DNA from: Escherichia phage vB_EcoM_AYO145A
Strand: one strand, 5' to 3'
Sequence record: KR014248
Length of the DNA stretch: 64,000 bases
Of this stretch, positions 21,125 through 28,652 are shown one piece after another (positions within the stretch are counted from its first letter, which is position 1; every line of letters starts with the position of its first letter). The notes below the pieces were generated by a model. That model was not told the origin of the DNA, did no database searches, and saw only the letters and a program-made list of their open reading frames with translations. The translations under genes were made by a program, and so were the position numbers.

Positions 21125-21589
21125 TTACTTTGGATATACACTGTCAAGATAAATGTCAGCTTCCATTCTACGTCTGTTTTTCAGGCCGTTTGAAGTGACC
21201 TTCTTACCTTTGACTGTAACCTTGTTCCACCACTGCATAGCTTCTGCACAACCGACCTTATTACCAGCATTGTGGCGCTTGATAAATGTGGAATCCTGCA
21301 TAGCCGTGATACCAATGTTGTATGTTTCACTTACCAGTGCATCAAACTCATTCTGAGAAGTTGGAACCTTGATAGATTTGTTCACTGCTGCGACAAACTT
21401 TTCAACATCTGCAAGAAGATACTGTTCAGCCTGTTCAGCAGTAATTTTCATGCCCATCTTAACAGGTTTTCCGTCAATACGGATTGTACCATACCCGATT
21501 GTTGGGATTCCGGCAGAGTCTTCGTAAGCCTCTAACTTCAGACCTTCAAAGAACTTAATAGCTTCTAAACCTTTTCTTGAGAGTTGCAT
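21125..21589 (-). CDS. lysozyme (GH24, T4-lysozyme-like)
   Basis: 154 aa; N-terminal signature LEAIKFFEGLKLEAYEDSAGIPTIGYGT. Confidence 0.8.
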   Translation of the reverse strand: MQLSRKGLEAIKFFEGLKLEAYEDSAGIPTIGYGTIRIDGKPVKMGMKITAEQAEQYLLADVEKFVAAVNKSIKVPTSQNEFDALVSETYNIGITAMQDSTFIKRHNAGNKVGCAEAMQWWNKVTVKGKKVTSNGLKNRRRMEADIYLDSVYPK

Positions 21590-22722
21590 TATGCCTCCCC
21601 TGCTGGGTTAACTGTAACTGTTGCCGCATTAGATGTTACAGAGCCACCTGCACCAGTAACTACACAGGTGTAGCTTCCTGCGTCAGCAGTGATTGCACCT
21701 TCTTTGGTGTAAGTTGCAGTAGTTGCGTCTAGGATGTTTTCCTCACCCTTCTTCCACTGATAACCTGTCGCACCAGTAGCCACAACACTTAGTGTCAAGG
21801 TATCACCTTCAGTGATTTCTTGATTGGTTGGCTGCTGAGTGATTACCGGAAGTGCATTCACAGTAACTGTTGCAGGGTTAGAAGTAACAGAACCACCTGC
21901 ACCTGTTACAACGCAAGTGTATGAACCTGCATCTGCTGGCAGTGCACCAGACTTGCTATAGGTAGCGTTTGTAGCTGAAGGGATGTCAGAGCCATCTTTC
22001 TTCCACTGGTAACCTGTTGCACCTGTTGCAGTCACTGATAGACTGATGTTTCCACCTTCATTAATGGTATGGCTAGAAGGTTGCTGTGTAATCACAGGCA
22101 GTGCGTTCACAGTCACTGTTGCTGCATCTGAGGTAACACTTGTTCCACCCTCTCCAGAGACAACACAAGTGTATGAACCAGCGTCAGAAGGTGCTACTGA
22201 CTGTTTTGTGTAAGTTGCAGAATTGGCACTAGGGATATCCTCACCATCCTTCTTCCACTGATATCCAGTGGCGTTAGTTGCTAGAATGCTTAGAGTAAGT
22301 GTGCCACCCTCATTGACTGTTTGACCTGTTGGTTGCTGAGTAATTGCTGGTGGCTTAATAGCATCCTTCAACTTAGCATTCAACATTGAGAACGGCTTAA
22401 CTCTTGCCAACCATTCACAGTAAATTGTGTCAACATCTTTACCATTGATGATTGCATACTGCAAATCCATGAAGAAATCAGCAGTTCTCATCTGTGCACC
22501 AACACTGTAAAGGAGTTCATCACTAAAAGGAACTTTGTAGTCTGGTTTGTAGTCAAACTTCTTAACTTCTGCAATATCAGCTTCAGGCCAATACGAGCTA
22601 TAGGTGAGTGGTAAAATAGCCTCTTGATATGTTCTAAAGTCATATCTCTTACCAGCTTTTACATTTGCAATGAAGCCCTTCACAAACTCTTTGAAGTCTG
22701 GGTAAGTCTTTGCTTTAATCAT
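21589..22722 (-). CDS. protein with three tandem Ig-like domains
   Basis: 377 aa; N-terminal domain paralogous to the next gene; three near-identical repeats of about 83 aa (PVITQQP...GATGYQWKKDG...DAGSYTCVV.GAGGSVTSN.ATVTVNA). Confidence 0.7.
   Translation of the reverse strand: MIKAKTYPDFKEFVKGFIANVKAGKRYDFRTYQEAILPLTYSSYWPEADIAEVKKFDYKPDYKVPFSDELLYSVGAQMRTADFFMDLQYAIINGKDVDTIYCEWLARVKPFSMLNAKLKDAIKPPAITQQPTGQTVNEGGTLTLSILATNATGYQWKKDGEDIPSANSATYTKQSVAPSDAGSYTCVVSGEGGTSVTSDAATVTVNALPVITQQPSSHTINEGGNISLSVTATGATGYQWKKDGSDIPSATNATYSKSGALPADAGSYTCVVTGAGGSVTSNPATVTVNALPVITQQPTNQEITEGDTLTLSVVATGATGYQWKKGEENILDATTATYTKEGAITADAGSYTCVVTGAGGSVTSNAATVTVNPAGEA
21592..22350 (-). repeat. three tandem repeats of about 250 bp encoding Ig-like domains
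   Basis: seen at protein level inside the 21589..22722 CDS. Confidence 0.7.
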
Positions 22723-24347: not shown

Positions 24348-24719
24348 ATGAAAAACAGAACAAACAAAGGCCAGTTTAAAAAAGGCCAGTCTGGAAACCC
24401 ATCTGGAAGACCAAAAGGCTCTCGTAACAAAAGCTCACTCGTAAAAGCTCAACTGACCATTGATAATTCTGCTGAGTTCGCTGCAAAGCTGTTTGAGGCG
24501 ATTGTTACAAGGGACGCGGCTAAGCTTGCAGAGTTCGGGTTAAACACAGATGACGTAACCATCAAGAGTATGATTGAGGTCGGTAAAACTATCTTTACTC
24601 ACTCAGCAGGTGAGATGAAAGCACTTGCAGCAGACACTAAGAAGACTCCTGATAATGGTGGTCAACAACAGACAGATAACAAACCAACGTTCTCTGCTGT
24701 AGCGACTCTCAAAAAATAA
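24348..24719 (+). CDS. hypothetical protein with basic Gly-rich N-terminus
   Basis: 123 aa; KGQSGNPSGRPKGSRNK N-terminus. Confidence 0.5.
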   Translation: MKNRTNKGQFKKGQSGNPSGRPKGSRNKSSLVKAQLTIDNSAEFAAKLFEAIVTRDAAKLAEFGLNTDDVTIKSMIEVGKTIFTHSAGEMKALAADTKKTPDNGGQQQTDNKPTFSAVATLKK

Positions 24720-24731
24720 TTTTAAAAGGTG

Positions 24732-24768
24732 TTGACAGACTCTACAAAGTTGCTCTAAAGTCTGTCAC
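24732..24768 (+). promoter_or_regulatory. promoter TTGACA-N18-TAAAGT overlapped by a 9-bp inverted repeat
   Basis: TTGACAGACT ... AGTCTGTCA; -10 TAAAGT; upstream of the Ro60-like gene. Confidence 0.45.
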
Positions 24769-24800: not shown

Positions 24801-26216
24801 ATGAGCGAATTATTTAAACATGCGCACCTTCATGCAGGTCGAACTGAAAATGGTGCTGTAAACCATACTTCATCAATGTCTGCTCTTGTAGACTTTTACA
24901 AAGCTGCTGGTTCTAGCCGTAGCAATGTAGGAATCTTACCAGACCTGTTCTACAAAGCTTTGCGTGAGGATGTTGATGTTGCAGTTCGTATTTTGCTTCA
25001 TATGCGAGATGTACGAGAAGGTATGGGTGAGCGTAAAGCTTTCCGAACTGTTTTACTTCAAGCGATTGAAGATAAAGTTTTAGAGCCTACGCAGGTTCTT
25101 CGCATTATGGATAAGATTGCAGAGCTTGGTCGTTTTGATGACTTCAAAATCTTCGTGGGTACTCGTTTCGAGACAGATGCCTTCAAACATTTAGAAGCAG
25201 CATTACTAGACCCTGCAACAGCAGGTTTGGCAGCTAAGTGGTTACCACGAGTCAAACCACGTCATAAGCAGTTTGTAAAACGTTTCTGCAAGTTTGCAAA
25301 CTTGAGTGAGAAAGAGTACCGCACACTGTTGTCTGCACTATCTGATACAGTTGAACAAAAAATCTCTGCTAATGAGTTTGGTAAGATTGACTACAGTAAG
25401 ATTCCTTCACTTGCTGCTGCACGTTACCAAAAACTCTTTAACCGTAAAGATGGAGAACGCTACAAAGCTTACATCGAGTCACTCTCAAAAGGTGAGGCCA
25501 AGATTAACGCTGGTGCTGTTTACCCATACGATGTGATTAAATCTATCAAGTATGGTAATGCAGATGTTGCTAATGAGCAGTGGAAAGCACTACCAAACTG
25601 GATGGTAGAAGGTGAAAACATCCTGTGTATGACTGATGTTTCAAGCTCAATGTCTTGGGTGAATCTTGGTTCAATCACTGCCCTTGATATTGGTGTATCC
25701 CTTGCCTTGTATGTAGCAGAACGCAATACAGGTTGTTTTAAGAATGAGTTAATGGTTTATTCAACAAACCCTCATTTCATCGAATTGAGTGGTGATTTAC
25801 GAAACCGTCATCGTCAGATAATGCGTCATGTTGAATATGGCTCAACTAACTTACAAGCAGCTTTTGACCGTATTCTTGAAATAGGCAAGAGAAACAACTT
25901 GACTCAGAAAGATATGCCAAGTAAGCTTATTATCTTCTCTGATATGGAGTTCAATCAGGTTGATGGAGCTAACGGTCGTACAAACTTTGAAGCAATTCAG
26001 AGTAAGTACAAAAAAGCTGGATATGAGATGCCACAACTGGTATTCTGGTACTTAGCAAACCGTAATGGTACTTGCGAAGTATCTGTTAAGGATAATGGTG
26101 TAGCAATGGTATCAGGGTTCTCTCCAGCCACTTTAAAAGCTCTGCTTGGTGGTGAGAAGTTTGACCCAATCAGCGTAATGCTCAAAGCAGTAATGATTGA
26201 CCGTTATATCTGGTAA
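24801..26216 (+). CDS. Ro60-like TROVE + vWA protein (Rsr-like)
   Basis: 471 aa; vWA MIDAS-like ILCMTDVSSSMSW and LIIFSDMEFNQ; central VYPYDVIKSI and C-terminal NG...GF..ATL resemble Ro60 as I recall it. Confidence 0.55.
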   Translation: MSELFKHAHLHAGRTENGAVNHTSSMSALVDFYKAAGSSRSNVGILPDLFYKALREDVDVAVRILLHMRDVREGMGERKAFRTVLLQAIEDKVLEPTQVLRIMDKIAELGRFDDFKIFVGTRFETDAFKHLEAALLDPATAGLAAKWLPRVKPRHKQFVKRFCKFANLSEKEYRTLLSALSDTVEQKISANEFGKIDYSKIPSLAAARYQKLFNRKDGERYKAYIESLSKGEAKINAGAVYPYDVIKSIKYGNADVANEQWKALPNWMVEGENILCMTDVSSSMSWVNLGSITALDIGVSLALYVAERNTGCFKNELMVYSTNPHFIELSGDLRNRHRQIMRHVEYGSTNLQAAFDRILEIGKRNNLTQKDMPSKLIIFSDMEFNQVDGANGRTNFEAIQSKYKKAGYEMPQLVFWYLANRNGTCEVSVKDNGVAMVSGFSPATLKALLGGEKFDPISVMLKAVMIDRYIW

Positions 26217-26234
26217 AAAGTTTTAAAAAGGGTA

Positions 26235-26263
26235 TTGACAATGTGTTTGATACCCTTTAATAT
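26235..26263 (+). promoter_or_regulatory. sigma70-like promoter (TTGACA-N17-TAATAT) inside the GGGTAT/ATACCC inverted repeat
   Basis: consensus boxes read by eye. Confidence 0.45.
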
Positions 26264-26325
26264 GTTCTACATAGAAACAAAATGAGAGCTTTTCTAAGAT
26301 ACTGAAAAATATTTTAAAAAAGTTC

Positions 26326-26355
26326 TTGACAACCACTAAAAAATAATGTTAAAGT
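26326..26355 (+). promoter_or_regulatory. promoter TTGACA-N18-TAAAGT upstream of the first tRNA
   Basis: TTGACAACCACT...AGTGGTT inverted repeat spanning the -10. Confidence 0.45.
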
Positions 26356-26381
26356 GGTTACATAGAGTTTGAAAAGTTTAT

Positions 26382-26458
26382 CTCTGTTTAGCTCAGCTTG
26401 GTAGAGCGTTCCGTTTGGGGCGGTAAGGCCGGAGGTTCAAGTCCTCCAACAGAGACCA
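26382..26458 (+). tRNA. tRNA-Pro(TGG)
   Basis: cloverleaf by eye; anticodon loop TTTGGGG; D- and T-arms close to E. coli tRNA-Pro; CCA encoded. Confidence 0.75.
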
Positions 26459-26465
26459 AATTAAT

Positions 26466-26543
26466 GTTCCAGTAGACAAAATGGTAAAGTCACCACTCTT
26501 TCAAAGTGGATATTTGAGGGTTCAAATCCCTTCTGGAACGCCA
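26466..26543 (+). tRNA. tRNA-Glu(TTC)
   Basis: acceptor GTTCCAG/CTGGAAC; anticodon loop CTTTCAA; T-loop TTCAAAT; CCA. Confidence 0.7.
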
Positions 26544-26550
26544 GTTTTGA

Positions 26551-26623
26551 CAGAAGACCAATTACAGCAAACTTAATCTTATTCATCTGACACGAAATCG
26601 GACAAAGAAGAGATTTGGTCTGG
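26551..26623 (+). ncRNA. structured spacer RNA candidate (CAGAAGACC...GGTCTGG family, copy 1)
   Basis: 5' CAGAAGACCA and 3' TGGTCTGG form the terminal helix; shared internal CAGCAA box. Confidence 0.3.
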
Positions 26624-26634
26624 TCATTAAGAAT

Positions 26635-26711
26635 TGCGGGTATAGAGAAAGGGCGTCTCACATGTCTCATTAGCATGGTATCGGCAGGTTCGACTCCTGC
26701 ACCCGCCTCCA
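26635..26711 (+). tRNA. tRNA-Met(CAT), or Ile2/fMet
   Basis: anticodon loop CTCATTA; T-arm GCAGGttcgactCCTGC; CCA. Confidence 0.55.
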
Positions 26712-26717
26712 ATTTTG

Positions 26718-26777
26718 CAGAAGACCGTATGCAGCAATAAACTACTTTTTGCGGATAAAAGAAAAAACACGGTCTGG
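26718..26777 (+). ncRNA. structured spacer RNA candidate (same family, copy 2)
   Basis: CAGAAGACCG ... CGGTCTGG; compensatory G:C where copy 1 has A:T. Confidence 0.3.
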
Positions 26778-26788
26778 CAATGTATTAA

Positions 26789-26865
26789 GGTTAGGAAGCA
26801 CATAAGGTATGTGCGGTCGCCTGTTAAGCGAATGGCACAGGGTTCGAATCCCTGACTAACCGCCA
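26789..26865 (+). tRNA. tRNA-Asn(GTT)
   Basis: anticodon loop CTGTTAA; T-arm CAGGGttcgaatCCCTG; CCA. Confidence 0.65.
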
Positions 26866-26874
26866 AATTTAAAT

Positions 26875-26962
26875 GTGTCGTTATCCCGTAGATGGTAGCG
26901 GTGGGGACTGTAAATCCCTTGTCATTGAGACTCGGTAGGTTCGACTCCTACACGGCACACCA
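26875..26962 (+). tRNA. tRNA-Tyr(GTA)
   Basis: 88 nt with long variable arm; anticodon loop CTGTAAA; CCA. Confidence 0.7.
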
Positions 26963-26968
26963 AATAAA

Positions 26969-27046
26969 GGTTATGTAGTTTAATCTGGTTAAAATACTCC
27001 CCTGTCACGGGAGATGATGAGGGTTCAAATCCCTTCGTAACCGCCA
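26969..27046 (+). tRNA. tRNA-Asp(GTC)
   Basis: anticodon stem CTCCC/GGGAG, loop CTGTCAC; CCA. Confidence 0.75.
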
Positions 27047-27133
27047 AATTATAATAAGTATTCCAAGATGATGTTTTGAGAGGGCTATTTAGCCCCTCCC
27101 TTAAAGAGTTCTTACGAGTATTCTTTAAAGGAG

Positions 27134-27210
27134 CAGAAGACCAAATTCAGCAAGTACGTATGATATTTTCAAGCCAATTTAATTTTGAAAAAATTTAAAA
27201 CTTGGTCTGG
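27134..27210 (+). ncRNA. structured spacer RNA candidate (same family, copy 3)
   Basis: CAGAAGACCAA ... TTGGTCTGG. Confidence 0.3.
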
Positions 27211-27223
27211 CTCAACAAATTTA

Positions 27224-27355
27224 CAGAAGACCGTTTACAGCAAAACTTAAACAATCTATTTCTCCGGTAAAGAAAAGGCGAAGGTTCGATTCCTTCACTC
27301 GGCAGATGTCGAGTTGGTGTAATGGTAGCACTTAAGATGATAAACAACGGTCTGG
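27224..27355 (+). ncRNA. Y-RNA-like RNA candidate (YrlA-type, permuted tRNA-like module)
   Basis: terminal helix AGACCGT/ACGGTCT; inside, T-arm GAAGGttcgattCCTTC, then ACTCGGC-agat-GTCGAGT acceptor-like hairpin, then TG and D-arm GTGTaatggtaGCAC; about 1 kb downstream of the Ro60-like gene. Confidence 0.45.
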
Positions 27356-27357
27356 TA

Positions 27358-27500
27358 ATTATCTTTGTAGATAAGTTATTAAGCTTACCTGTGAGTATGC
27401 GACCACAAAGGGTGAAAGGGTAAATTCTAGATTTAAACCCAACAAGGCACATCGCTACAGACCTTAAGCAAGTCTGGGTAGCTTATCTACAAAGATAATT
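27358..27500 (+). ncRNA. structured RNA candidate closed by a perfect 19-bp inverted repeat
   Basis: AATTATCTTTGTAGATAAG (27358-27376) is the exact reverse complement of CTTATCTACAAAGATAATT (27482-27500); internal CAGACcttaagcaaGTCTG hairpin. Confidence 0.35.
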
Positions 27501-27663: not shown

Positions 27664-27739
27664 GCTGGTATAGTTAAGAAGGTTATAACACTCCCCTGAT
27701 AAGGGAACATCGGTGGTTCGATTCCACCTACCAGTACCA
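27664..27739 (+). tRNA. tRNA-Ile(GAT)
   Basis: D-stem GTTA/TAAC; anticodon loop CTGATAA; T-arm GGTGGttcgattCCACC; CCA. Confidence 0.65.
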
Positions 27740-27754
27740 ATTTCAATAAAGTTG

Positions 27755-27783
27755 TTGACATTGAGATGTGACTACTTTATAGT
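27755..27783 (+). promoter_or_regulatory. sigma70-like promoter (TTGACA-N17-TATAGT)
   Basis: internal promoter inside the tRNA island. Confidence 0.5.
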
Positions 27784-27987
27784 AACCTTAGTTTTCGTTG
27801 CGTAGCGTCTATTTTGCAAATTTAAAATAAATGCAAACGACAATGTTTTTCTGGCAGTAGCTTGATAGGCTAAACACCAGTGAGGTCTTCCAATCCCTCA
27901 TCAAAGAATTTGGCGTACTCGCCCACGGTATGATTAATAAGGTGGGCATCTTTAAGGGCTTTCTAAGAGAGTCTTTAAAGATAATTA

Positions 27988-28069
27988 CGGGGCGTATCTC
28001 AGCGGTCTTCTAAACCGCCGTTAACCGAGTAAGTGGAGTATGCGGGTTCGAGTCCTGCCGCCTCGACCA
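27988..28069 (+). tRNA. tRNA-like, possibly Arg(TCT); non-canonical D region
   Basis: good acceptor (CGGGGCG/CGCCTCG), T-arm and CCA; GCGGTcttctaaACCGC fits an anticodon arm but leaves no room for a normal D-arm. Confidence 0.35.
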
Positions 28070-28294: not shown

Positions 28295-28307
28295 AAGTCT
28301 TATTAGG

Positions 28308-28395
28308 GGTAGGTAGCGGCTAATGGTAGCCAAACTGTCTTGAAAACAGTTGCCACTGTAGAGATACGGTGAGGGTTCGACTCCTTTACTTACCG
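28308..28395 (+). tRNA. tRNA-Ser(TGA)
   Basis: class II: anticodon stem ACTGT/ACAGT, loop CTTGAAA, long variable arm; 3' CCA not encoded (GCCT). Confidence 0.65.
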
Positions 28396-28652
28396 CCTAA
28401 TAAGATTTAAAGCCAAGCTTCATTCGGATGTTGCTTTGGTATACCGCGTGTATTGTTGTACGCACTGATAAAGCACCTAGTAGGTGTCACGGAGAAGAGA
28501 TAATATCAAGCTCTCCAAAGGTTCTAGTCACCGGATTAAACAAGACTATGCAAAGACCTTTTTAGGTCTTTTTAGAGGGCTTCTAAGGTTATTACAGCTT
28601 GTTGTGGAACCTTGTTGCTTAGGTTCTTAGAAGTTCTCTAAAAAGACTTAAT

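Follow-up and report, generated by a model that had tools for sequence, protein, structure and literature searches.

Does Escherichia phage vB_EcoM_AYO145A encode a Ro60-type protein together with its own Y-like RNAs, and where between its tRNA genes would such RNAs lie? The stretch analyzed (sequence record KR014248, 64,000 nucleotides, referred to here as the window) contains a 25-gene tRNA island with an open reading frame (ORF) at its head. In the original prediction, made from the sequence alone, this ORF was read as a Ro60-like protein with TROVE and vWA domains, paired with a single downstream Y-RNA-like element that carries a permuted tRNA-like module. Conservation of Ro60/Y RNA particles extends from bacteria to humans, and their functions are only partly understood; to our knowledge, the bacterial and phage examples known to date came to light via the TROVE domain and a GNCGAA-type site. 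The present analysis confirms the underlying observation and supports its interpretation, by routes other than those originally proposed. The protein is predicted to have a Ro60 architecture, its gene is accompanied by four structured RNAs, and, as far as sequence comparison can tell, gene and RNAs constitute a second Ro60/Y RNA branch that differs in its protein family and in its RNA docking module. The four RNAs are likely ligands of the protein.

The predicted vWA signature of the ORF, i.e. the MIDAS (metal ion-dependent adhesion site) motifs DVSSSMS and FSDMEFN, is present at residues 279-285 and 379-385, and the complete MIDAS (DxSxS...T...D; D279, S281, S283, T349 and D381) is unchanged across 41 homologues in an alignment that reaches down to 40% identity. 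The 'Ro60-like patches' claimed alongside it could not be recovered at the sequence level. A Pfam search of the 471-residue protein (E<=0.1) returned DUF2828 (PF11443, residues 171-264), DUF7788 (PF25043, residues 275-455) and a sub-threshold match to VWA_2 and none to TROVE (PF05731); of the proposed domain pair, the vWA half with its full MIDAS stands and the TROVE half is not seen at the sequence level. Ro60 was retrieved from the PDB sequences neither by phmmer with the protein itself nor by a hidden Markov model of the 41 homologues, no match was found in NCBIfam, and PHROGs assigned the protein to family 850, 'RNA-binding protein'. The Ro60-like identity emerged from structure comparison only. 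An AlphaFold2 model computed from the same alignment is confident (pLDDT 87.6, pTM 0.87), and in a Foldseek search against the PDB all 12 best matches were full-length hits to Ro60 proteins (Xenopus, Deinococcus Rsr, Thermus phage phiLo; E 1.7e-8 to 3e-6, TM 0.49-0.64), to which sequence identity is 12-16%. In the model, an N-terminal helical-repeat ring (approximately residues 1-265) is followed by a C-terminal vWA domain with the MIDAS. Since Foldseek matches Ro60 while sequence profiles find none, the model assigns the protein a Ro60 architecture (alpha-helical repeat ring plus vWA) in a branch out of reach of the TROVE profile. It is thus probably an RNA-binding protein of the Ro60 type that forms a ring and belongs to a divergent branch found mostly in viruses (DUF2828 plus DUF7788, PHROG 850). 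Among the candidates scored, the homologue family comprises 2837 clusters at E<=1e-3; 708 phage records in GenBank contain it, as do at least 590 IMG/VR stretches, across phages of at least five bacterial phyla, and its members in cluster L mycobacteriophages carry the annotation 'Ro-like RNA binding protein'.

The RNA element originally proposed, here unit 4, contains the predicted parts in the predicted order. The terminal helix (AGACCGT 27228-27234 / ACGGTCT 27347-27353) encloses a T-arm (GAAGG-TTCGATT-CCTTC, 27280-27296, T-loop TTCGATT), an acceptor-like hairpin of 7 bp with a 4-nt loop (ACTCGGC-AGAT-GTCGAGT, 27297-27314) and, after a 2-nt linker, a D-arm (GTGT-AATGGTA-GCAC, 27317-27331), with equivalents of the tRNA invariants U8, G10, A14, G18 and G19. 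All of these helices are also recovered by the thermodynamic fold that had been put forward as a check, an unconstrained minimum-free-energy prediction. Within the terminal helix, TTA-CAGCAA (27235-27243) is unpaired, an invariant G (27354) follows the helix, and a further hairpin (27259-27275; 5 bp, 7-nt loop), located 4-5 nt ahead of the T-arm, corresponds by analogy to the 'V' stem-loop of YrlA (PMC4201824). With V, T, acceptor-like and D stem-loops inside a terminal helix, on the gene strand, within 4 kb of the gene and covarying across phages, the proposed YrlA-type architecture is borne out. The element is not an ordinary tRNA: ARAGORN made no tRNA call at 27221-27358, and the Rfam tRNA model (RF00005) matched unit 4 only partially (model positions 7-64, 22 bits vs a threshold of 29).

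Independent evidence comes from R2, a covariance model built without any Felix-like sequence from eight T/acceptor/D cores beside homologues in Klebsiella, Mycobacterium, Cronobacter, Bacillus and Sinorhizobium phages. R2 matches 27280-27331 with all three helices at 43.2 bits (E 3e-11), so that the covariance check proposed for the element, which gave nothing with the Rfam Y_RNA and YrlA families, succeeded with a phage-built model. The next-best matches, tRNA-tRNA junctions, reach at most 26.6 bits and bypass the acceptor helix. That junctions score with a T/acceptor/D model at all is what one would expect if unit 4 were the decayed junction of two tandem tRNA genes, with the T-arm and 3' acceptor strand coming from the first gene and the 5' acceptor strand and D-arm from the second, and its motif a duplicated functionless spacer; Chen et al. 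caution against precisely this false positive (PMC4201824). A case of this kind was met in Cronobacter phage LPCS28, where an apparent permuted unit ('Cro_a') was rejected as a read-through of two neighbouring non-permuted tRNA-shaped RNAs. Unit 4, however, outscores every junction by 16.6 bits because its two acceptor strands pair across the 4-nt loop, and it has neither a 5' half ahead of it nor a 3' half behind it. Moreover, across the Ounavirinae the whole acceptor-like stem has been replaced compensatorily, with three unrelated yet paired versions, and the flanking module is conserved across phyla. A decayed junction is therefore already disfavoured and very improbable, and unit 4 is best regarded as a YrlA-type element.

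Its relatives in other phages also show tRNA-like traits. In several permuted relatives the acceptor-like loop begins with an encoded N-CCA (GCCA in Citrobacter phage HP1; ACCA in KP13-16, LPCS28 and phiM19), which, by analogy to Mycobacterium smegmatis YrlA (PMC4201824), suggests RNase P processing and 3' trimming; in the window the loop is merely AGAT. Along with the 7-bp acceptor-like stem, the N-CCA hints indirectly that such RNAs could be substrates of tRNA enzymes, e.g. TruB, DusA, RNase P or the CCA-adding enzyme. In addition, non-permuted relatives were found in Cronobacter phage LPCS28, Aeromonas phage LAh_6 and Klebsiella phage KP13-16. These RNAs are tRNA-shaped, with a normal 7-bp acceptor stem, D-arm, T-arm, discriminator and N-CCA; in place of the anticodon arm they carry the CAGCA module (A-rich strand, 7-bp stem and UUA-CAGCA(A/C/U)) with a triloop as its cap.

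Is unit 4 the only RNA of this kind at the locus? The motif AGAAGACC-N5-CAGCA occurs four times in the window (0.14 copies expected), starting at 26552, 26719, 27135 and 27225, and each copy is answered downstream by NN-GGTCTGG, the NN of which covaries. The single-RNA account hence holds for unit 4 and overlooked three further units, the 4-bp outer stems and the hairpin at 27259-27275. Unit 1 has an outer stem TGAC/GTCA, an AGA vs G internal loop, an inner stem AGACCAA (26555-26561) / TTGGTCT (26615-26621), TTA-CAGCAA (26562-26570) and the invariant G at 26622. The corresponding parts of unit 2 are TTGC/GCAA, AGACCGT (26722-26728) / ACGGTCT (26769-26775), ATG-CAGCAA and G 26776, and those of unit 3 are GAGC/GCTC, AGACCAA (27138-27144) / TTGGTCT (27202-27208), ATT-CAGCAA and G 27209; the outer stem of unit 4 is TTAC/GTAA. 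Thus, the outer stems differ in each of the four units, yet all pair, and the minimum-free-energy folds of all four share the outer stem, the AGA/G internal loop, the 7-bp inner stem and an unpaired NNN-CAGCAA. Units 1-3 are 66-83 nt long, hold a small variable hairpin and an A-rich tract inside, and are spaced 7-10 nt from the flanking tRNAs, as are the tRNA genes of the array. Unit 2 carries the A-rich tract and, by eye, a possible hairpin CTTTT-TGCGGAT-AAAAG (26745-26761), a stretch that the unconstrained fold pairs otherwise. When the window is compared with Bas63 (Escherichia phage JohannRWettstein) and Citrobacter phage HP1, the module does not vary, but free divergence is seen inside units 1 and 2; unit 1 as such is kept in both phages. 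The putative docking module of each unit can be summarized as an 11-12 bp helix with an AGA/G internal loop, NNN-CAGCAA, an A-rich 3' approach strand and the invariant G. Among 75 distinct units from diverse phages, the consensus reads A-G-R-N-U-N-C UUA CAGCAA, a G-poor stretch, an A-rich approach and N-N-A-N-C-C-U-G. A second covariance model, R1, derived from fixed-register mini-constructs of non-Felix phages only, found unit 2 (20.3 bits, E 0.014) and unit 3 (15.7 bits, E 0.28), matched unit 4 at the motif only and missed unit 1; it is weak because the variable interior is treated by local ends only.

Do the units belong to the Ro60-like gene or to the tRNA genes around them? Since a looser stem scan gave high background, a strict descriptor was used together with shuffles. 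It demands CAGCAA, a stem of 7 bp at -10 to -4 that tolerates a single G-U pair, a G after the 3' strand and 18-130 nt of interior. Applied to the 64-kb window, it returns the four units and nothing else, all on the plus strand and within about 800 nt. Across the window and 16 loci around homologues in GenBank phages, there are 38 sites on the same strand as the gene and 0 on the other, against 0.9 in dinucleotide shuffles, and in 66 independent IMG/VR contigs (39-46% protein identity, 581 kb) the corresponding numbers are 53 and 0. These 53 sites stem from 39 of the 66 loci, 46 of them are within 1 kb of the gene, and their lengths are bimodal (48-68 and 87-136 nt). CAGCAT and CAGCAC variants of the motif also occur. 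The unit-bearing GenBank phages infect Enterobacteria, Aeromonas, Campylobacter, Sinorhizobium, Mycobacterium, Bacillus, Staphylococcus, Listeria and Enterococcus, and the Ro60-like gene is the sole protein-coding neighbour that is constant across lineages. Long units beside the gene in mycobacteriophage LeBron (39.8 bits) and Klebsiella phage KP13-16 (39.7 bits) are also matched nearly full-length, at sub-threshold scores, by the Rfam YrlA model, which reaches 35.2 bits in a further related locus. Because the same pairing of gene and RNA recurs in such diverse phages, the RNAs are probably partners of the protein.

The four elements could instead be genuine structured RNAs that serve the processing, stability or punctuation of the tRNA operon, for example as points where RNase III, E or P enters, or that bind another factor, with the linkage to the gene reflecting a shared position at the heads of tRNA islands. 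The tRNA-like spacing of the units would fit this, as would other long stems that flank nearby tRNAs (28295-28408, 27357-27500) and the presence of tRNA genes in many homologous loci. However, in LeBron and Staphylococcus phage S-CoN_Ph8 the module is located beside the gene without neighbouring tRNAs, and in some loci it precedes the gene or overlaps the gene's ribosome-binding site. Its CAGCAA is conserved from Mycobacterium to Campylobacter phages, which is hard to pin on host-specific nucleases. Conversely, the module was not seen in gene-less tRNA islands, and distant BLAST matches (T4-like, T5-like) are to tRNA genes only. A role confined to the tRNA operon is accordingly unlikely, and the units are preferentially viewed as partners of the Ro60-like protein.

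How does this system relate to known ones? YrlA architecture and its location near Ro60 have been described for bacteria, where YrlA and Yrn1 tether Rsr to PNPase (PMC4201824). The phage locus resembles the Rsr-YrlA/YrlB systems of Salmonella Typhimurium and M. smegmatis (PMC4201824) in its ring-plus-vWA protein and in having several small RNAs on the same strand, a few kb from the gene, one of which shows V, T, acceptor-like and D stem-loops inside a terminal helix while the others are simple hairpins. The 7-bp acceptor-like stem of M. smegmatis YrlA recurs in unit 4. YrlA RNAs are expected on the same strand within ~4 kb, and unit 4 is located 1.0 kb downstream of the gene on its strand, in keeping with all related loci. 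In contrast to Rsr, the phage protein is not recognized by the TROVE profile, and its RNAs have, in place of GNCGAAN0-1G, a 7-bp stem, NNN-CAGCAA and a 3' G. They are four instead of two, set within a tRNA array, and no rtcBA operon context was seen at the phage locus. The Ro60 of Thermus phage phiLo, which binds adjacent Yrl RNAs and host PNPase (PMC12135203; PDB 9KOP, 9L5Y), differs as well: it is a recognized TROVE protein, its RNAs carry a CGAA motif in a bulge and are encoded upstream of the gene, and neither a tRNA-mimic module nor a tRNA-island context is described for them. A candidate for the canonical Ro-binding site in unit 4, GGCGAAGG (27277-27284), was rejected because it overlaps the T-stem junction and is not conserved, Citrobacter phage HP1 having GAGAGAAGG instead. 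The absence of the canonical GNCGAA motif marks the phage system as a distinct branch, and since it failed the tests of Rfam score, GNCGAA motif and TROVE profile, it is placed outside YrlA and TROVE membership.

Several findings weigh against regarding the locus as a Ro60/Y RNA system. Similarity to TROVE is undetectable at the sequence level. The Rfam Y_RNA and YrlA families had no match in the window, either at the gathering threshold (69 bits for YrlA, RF02553) or at E<=10 in searches that covered 2.2-kb and 181-nt stretches of it. The canonical site GNCGAAN0-1G was not found as a conserved feature, the 5' region of unit 4 having CAGCAA. Taken singly, the units have modest fold-energy z-scores (-1.7 to -2.0; -1.73 for unit 4 and 0.05 for a truncated unit 3). 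A strict-descriptor unit was absent from the examined flanks in 27 of the 66 IMG/VR loci and in Aeromonas Ah1 and Serratia BF. Covariation speaks for the units, but the alignments that document it were assembled via a pairing search, so that the percentages obtained, 98% paired for the closing stem (changes on both sides in 7/7 pairs) and 96% for the 16 pairs of 11 T/acceptor/D modules (changes on both sides in 13/16), are partly circular because stems were picked for pairing; fixed register, strand bias and location were not among the selection criteria. Finally, the published phenotype of the protein does not require the RNAs. Bas63 gp130 is an orthologue with 97% identity that has been described in a 2024 PhageMaP preprint as structurally Ro60-like and as countering the Ppl defence (PMC11482910). 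As gp130 alone, provided on a plasmid or inserted into T7, restores plaquing on a Ppl host (PMC11482910), the phage RNAs are dispensable for the anti-Ppl phenotype, a point that also speaks for an unrelated, operon-related role of the units.

The same result invites the idea that the RNAs do bind the protein and act mainly in cis or as a titrating sponge, setting its level or activity, while its real job, blocking Ppl, is RNA-independent. In Vibrio phage vB_ValM_R10Z, the single CAGCAA unit of the locus (L005 2965-3005, 6-bp stem) spans both the Shine-Dalgarno sequence and the start codon (ATG) of the Ro60-like gene, which suggests translational autoregulation in some lineages, and about a quarter of the IMG/VR units are found just upstream of the gene. 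Furthermore, LeBron gp53 is toxic when overexpressed (PMC13148394), so that buffering would be useful. Yet, a regulatory or titrating role would leave unexplained the tRNA-mimic module and the encoded N-CCA of the relatives, both of which point to tRNA enzymes, and all four units of the window are downstream of the gene, behind separate putative promoters. A purely regulatory role is hence unlikely, slightly more so than the operon-related one, and the RNAs are more readily pictured as ligands that could recruit host enzymes.

We infer from these comparisons that the RNAs bind the protein, are expressed as discrete species and act in complex with it. In the most economical and probable reading, the ring would engage the interrupted helix and the CAGCAA of the four phage RNAs, which would act as Y RNAs, their docking module taking the place of the GNCGAA / GGUCCGA site of canonical Ro60. 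Transcription of the RNAs probably starts, jointly with that of the tRNAs, at the promoter-like sites 26235 and 26326, and tRNA-processing nucleases may then release them from the polycistronic precursor. Units 1-3, with their small variable hairpin, would be comparable to YrlB, whereas unit 4 would provide the YrlA-type tRNA mimic (V, T, closed acceptor, D). In analogy to Rsr-YrlA-PNPase and phiLo Ro60-Yrl-PNPase, the RNAs may then gate the ring or tether it to host enzymes that handle tRNA or other RNA, and tRNA-binding enzymes or an exonuclease could be drawn in by the tRNA mimic of unit 4. As gp130 is sufficient on its own in T7, the part played by the RNAs may be to modulate, gate or redirect the protein and need not be obligatory. 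The net output would be counter-defence or RNA housekeeping during infection; in this phage group, it is at least partly counter-defence against Ppl (PMC11482910). The suggestion that the pair serves host takeover rather than translation fits this published role of Bas63 gp130.

What was known before is thus the Ro60-likeness of the Bas63 protein and its anti-Ppl role; the RNAs are new here. In Bas63, gp130 is likewise encoded upstream of tRNA genes and accompanied by the same four RNA units. The preprint guessed that 'some tRNA genes are possibly Y RNAs' and identified neither the RNA elements nor a motif or family-wide association (PMC11482910). In contrast to that guess, the candidates described here are unannotated spacers, not annotated tRNAs, and in Bas63 they lie partly under two minus-strand coding sequences (CDS), bas63_0137 and bas63_0138. 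These, as well as HP1_22 of Citrobacter phage HP1, are probably spurious.

The features of the locus and of related loci are collected in Table 1. Felixounavirus relatives (EcoM2, JH2, BPS17L1 and others, i.e. Felix O1-like phages of E. coli and Salmonella) are 97-98% identical over the region. The Ro60-like ORF is flanked by a leftward block of small genes on one side and by rightward terminase and structural genes on the other. The two promoter-like sites between the gene and the first tRNA, both spanned by direct repeat D5, likely mark the start of the tRNA/Y-like RNA transcript. Sigma-70-like sites are not enriched over shuffles in this region, and the site upstream of the gene is a tentative promoter.

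Table 1. Coordinates of the Ro60-like gene, putative promoters and Y-like RNA units in the window, and of related features in other phages.
Feature	Position	Strand	Basis or remark
Sigma-70-like promoter TTGACA-18-TAAAGT	24732..24761	+	10/12 consensus matches; upstream of Ro60-like gene
Ro60-like protein gene, ATG start, 471 aa	24801..26216	+	ORF, structure model, MIDAS
Sigma-70-like promoter TTGACA-17-TAATAT	26235-26263	+	Consensus scan; between gene and first tRNA
Sigma-70-like promoter TTGACA-18-TAAAGT with TG	26326-26355	+	Consensus scan; between gene and first tRNA
Y-like RNA unit 1 (short)	26548..26626	+	Between tRNA-Glu and tRNA-Met
Y-like RNA unit 2 (short)	26715..26780	+	Between tRNA-Met and tRNA-Asn
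Y-like RNA unit 3 (short)	27131..27213	+	Motif, strict descriptor, fold
Y-like RNA unit 4 (YrlA-type)	27221..27358	+	Motif, descriptor, fold, covariance model R2
Non-permuted relatives of unit 4	L007 4895-5017, 5025-5137; L006 494-612; L003 5945-6057		Rfam tRNA 41-57 bits, large insertion
Hypothetical-protein CDS over units 3 and 4	Bas63 L098 16749-17023 (bas63_0137, bas63_0138); HP1 L002 5358-5486 (HP1_22)		

Other structured elements are found in the same island. Right after unit 4, a stretch of ~145 nt (27357-27500, plus strand) is closed by a stem of 22-24 bp (AATTATCTTTGTAGATAAGTTA / TAGCTTATCTACAAAGATAATT) and folds at -48.3 kcal/mol vs -26.5 for shuffles (z -6.06). It has neither an Rfam match nor an annotation, is kept in Bas63 and shows in HP1 a compensatory stem change from TTTGTAG/CTACAAA to TTTGCAG/CTGCAAA. 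Further downstream, at 27740-28066 (plus strand), a structured region (z -3.6) comes after a promoter-like site (27755-27783, 11/12 matches). This part of the island also gave a weak tmRNA_permuted match (27681-27865, 29.2 bits vs a gathering score of 47), a weak tmRNA match and a tRNA-like element with a long insert (27988-28066, Rfam 31.7 bits), which ARAGORN did not call and which is annotated as tRNA-Arg in related records. On the plus strand, a 13-bp inverted repeat (28295-28408) surrounds tRNA-Ser (28308-28397), and 26-nt arms with 88% complementarity (28562-28651) stand just ahead of tRNA-Leu; both may be processing stems.

As to neighbouring proteins, a DUF5681 protein of 123 residues with a very basic N-terminus (KGQFKKGQSGNPSGRPKGSRNK) is encoded immediately 5' of the Ro60-like gene (24348-24719, plus strand). 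It was considered as an alternative RNA partner and rejected, as its ORF is kept in the Ounavirinae and not found beside the gene in other lineages. A 377-residue protein with three tandem Ig-like repeats (ITQQPT...GYQWKKDG...GSYTCVV) is encoded at 21589-22722 on the minus strand, adjoining the endolysin gene; its counterpart in Bas63 is annotated as an immunoglobulin-like domain protein. In Listeria phage LMSP-25, a ROOL RNA (RF03087; L016 928-1479, 88.5 bits vs a gathering score of 99.1, E 1.7e-16) is located amid tRNAs, roughly 1 kb upstream of the DUF2828 gene, with CAGCAA units between the ROOL RNA and the gene.

Could the docking module extend beyond phages? The sole Rfam family that matches the short phage units is RF01414 (Dictyostelid Class I RNA), full-length and at 18-29.6 bits: unit 2 scores 18.0 bits, two KP13-16 units 24.4 and 23.6, and units of Aeromonas phage LAh_6 29.6, 28.0 and 25.7, with unit 4 at 12.8. 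Every match is below the gathering score of 41.5, and the unit matches fall exactly on units. Class I RNAs are 45-65 nt long and consist of a covarying 5'/3' stem, a variable interior with an A-rich tract, the 11-nt motif CCUUACAGCAA adjoining the 5' strand, in which U3, C6, C9, A10 and A11 are invariant, and a 3' CUG(U) (PMC7919456). When the 75 phage units were compared with this motif (sequences from supplementary file 19 of PMC7919456), C6, C9, A10 and A11 were invariant and a U occupied position 4 in 85%, the register being 1 nt off. The phage units end in C-U-G, and the short ones measure 48-68 nt. Common to both are also (C)UUACAGCAA directly 3' of the 5' strand, a small interior hairpin and multiple copies. 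In contrast, Class I RNAs have a 6-bp stem and an invariant 5' G, where the phage units have 7 bp plus an outer stem. They are furthermore eukaryotic, have a DUSE promoter and are bound directly by the RNA recognition motif protein Rnp1A, whereas the phage units belong to bacterial hosts and have no DUSE.

Class I RNAs have been reported as unique to Dictyostelia, with a function that is poorly understood (PMC7919456), and DUF2828 has also been noted in mimivirus-like sequences (bioRxiv 10.1101/033464). The literature on DUF2828, and on Dictyostelium with TROVE, yielded nothing decisive. DUF2828 proteins also occur in eukaryotes. A common ancestry or a common protein partner of Class I RNAs and phage units is conceivable but rather unlikely; on this tentative reading, the helix-plus-UUACAGCAA module would be a universal recognition element of the DUF2828 Ro60-like branch in phages, mimivirus-like sequences and eukaryotes.

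For the Felix O1-like phages, the analysis flags four unannotated RNA genes per genome, parts of which are overlain by small, probably spurious CDS in some records; knockout screens that hit bas63_0137, bas63_0138 or HP1_22 would consequently read out RNAs, not proteins. Actual RNA candidates can now be named for Bas63 gp130, which defeats the uncharacterised defence system Ppl, and it becomes possible to ask whether counter-defence depends on the RNAs and whether the tRNA mimic recruits host enzymes. If the tentative link to Class I RNAs is true, these would be the eukaryotic counterparts of the phage units, Y-RNA-like partners of a DUF2828 protein and not unique to social amoebae, and a second Ro60/Y-RNA-type ribonucleoprotein lineage would be common to viruses and eukaryotes. 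For Dictyostelium, whose Class I RNAs have long lacked an explanation, this provides a lead that can be tested.

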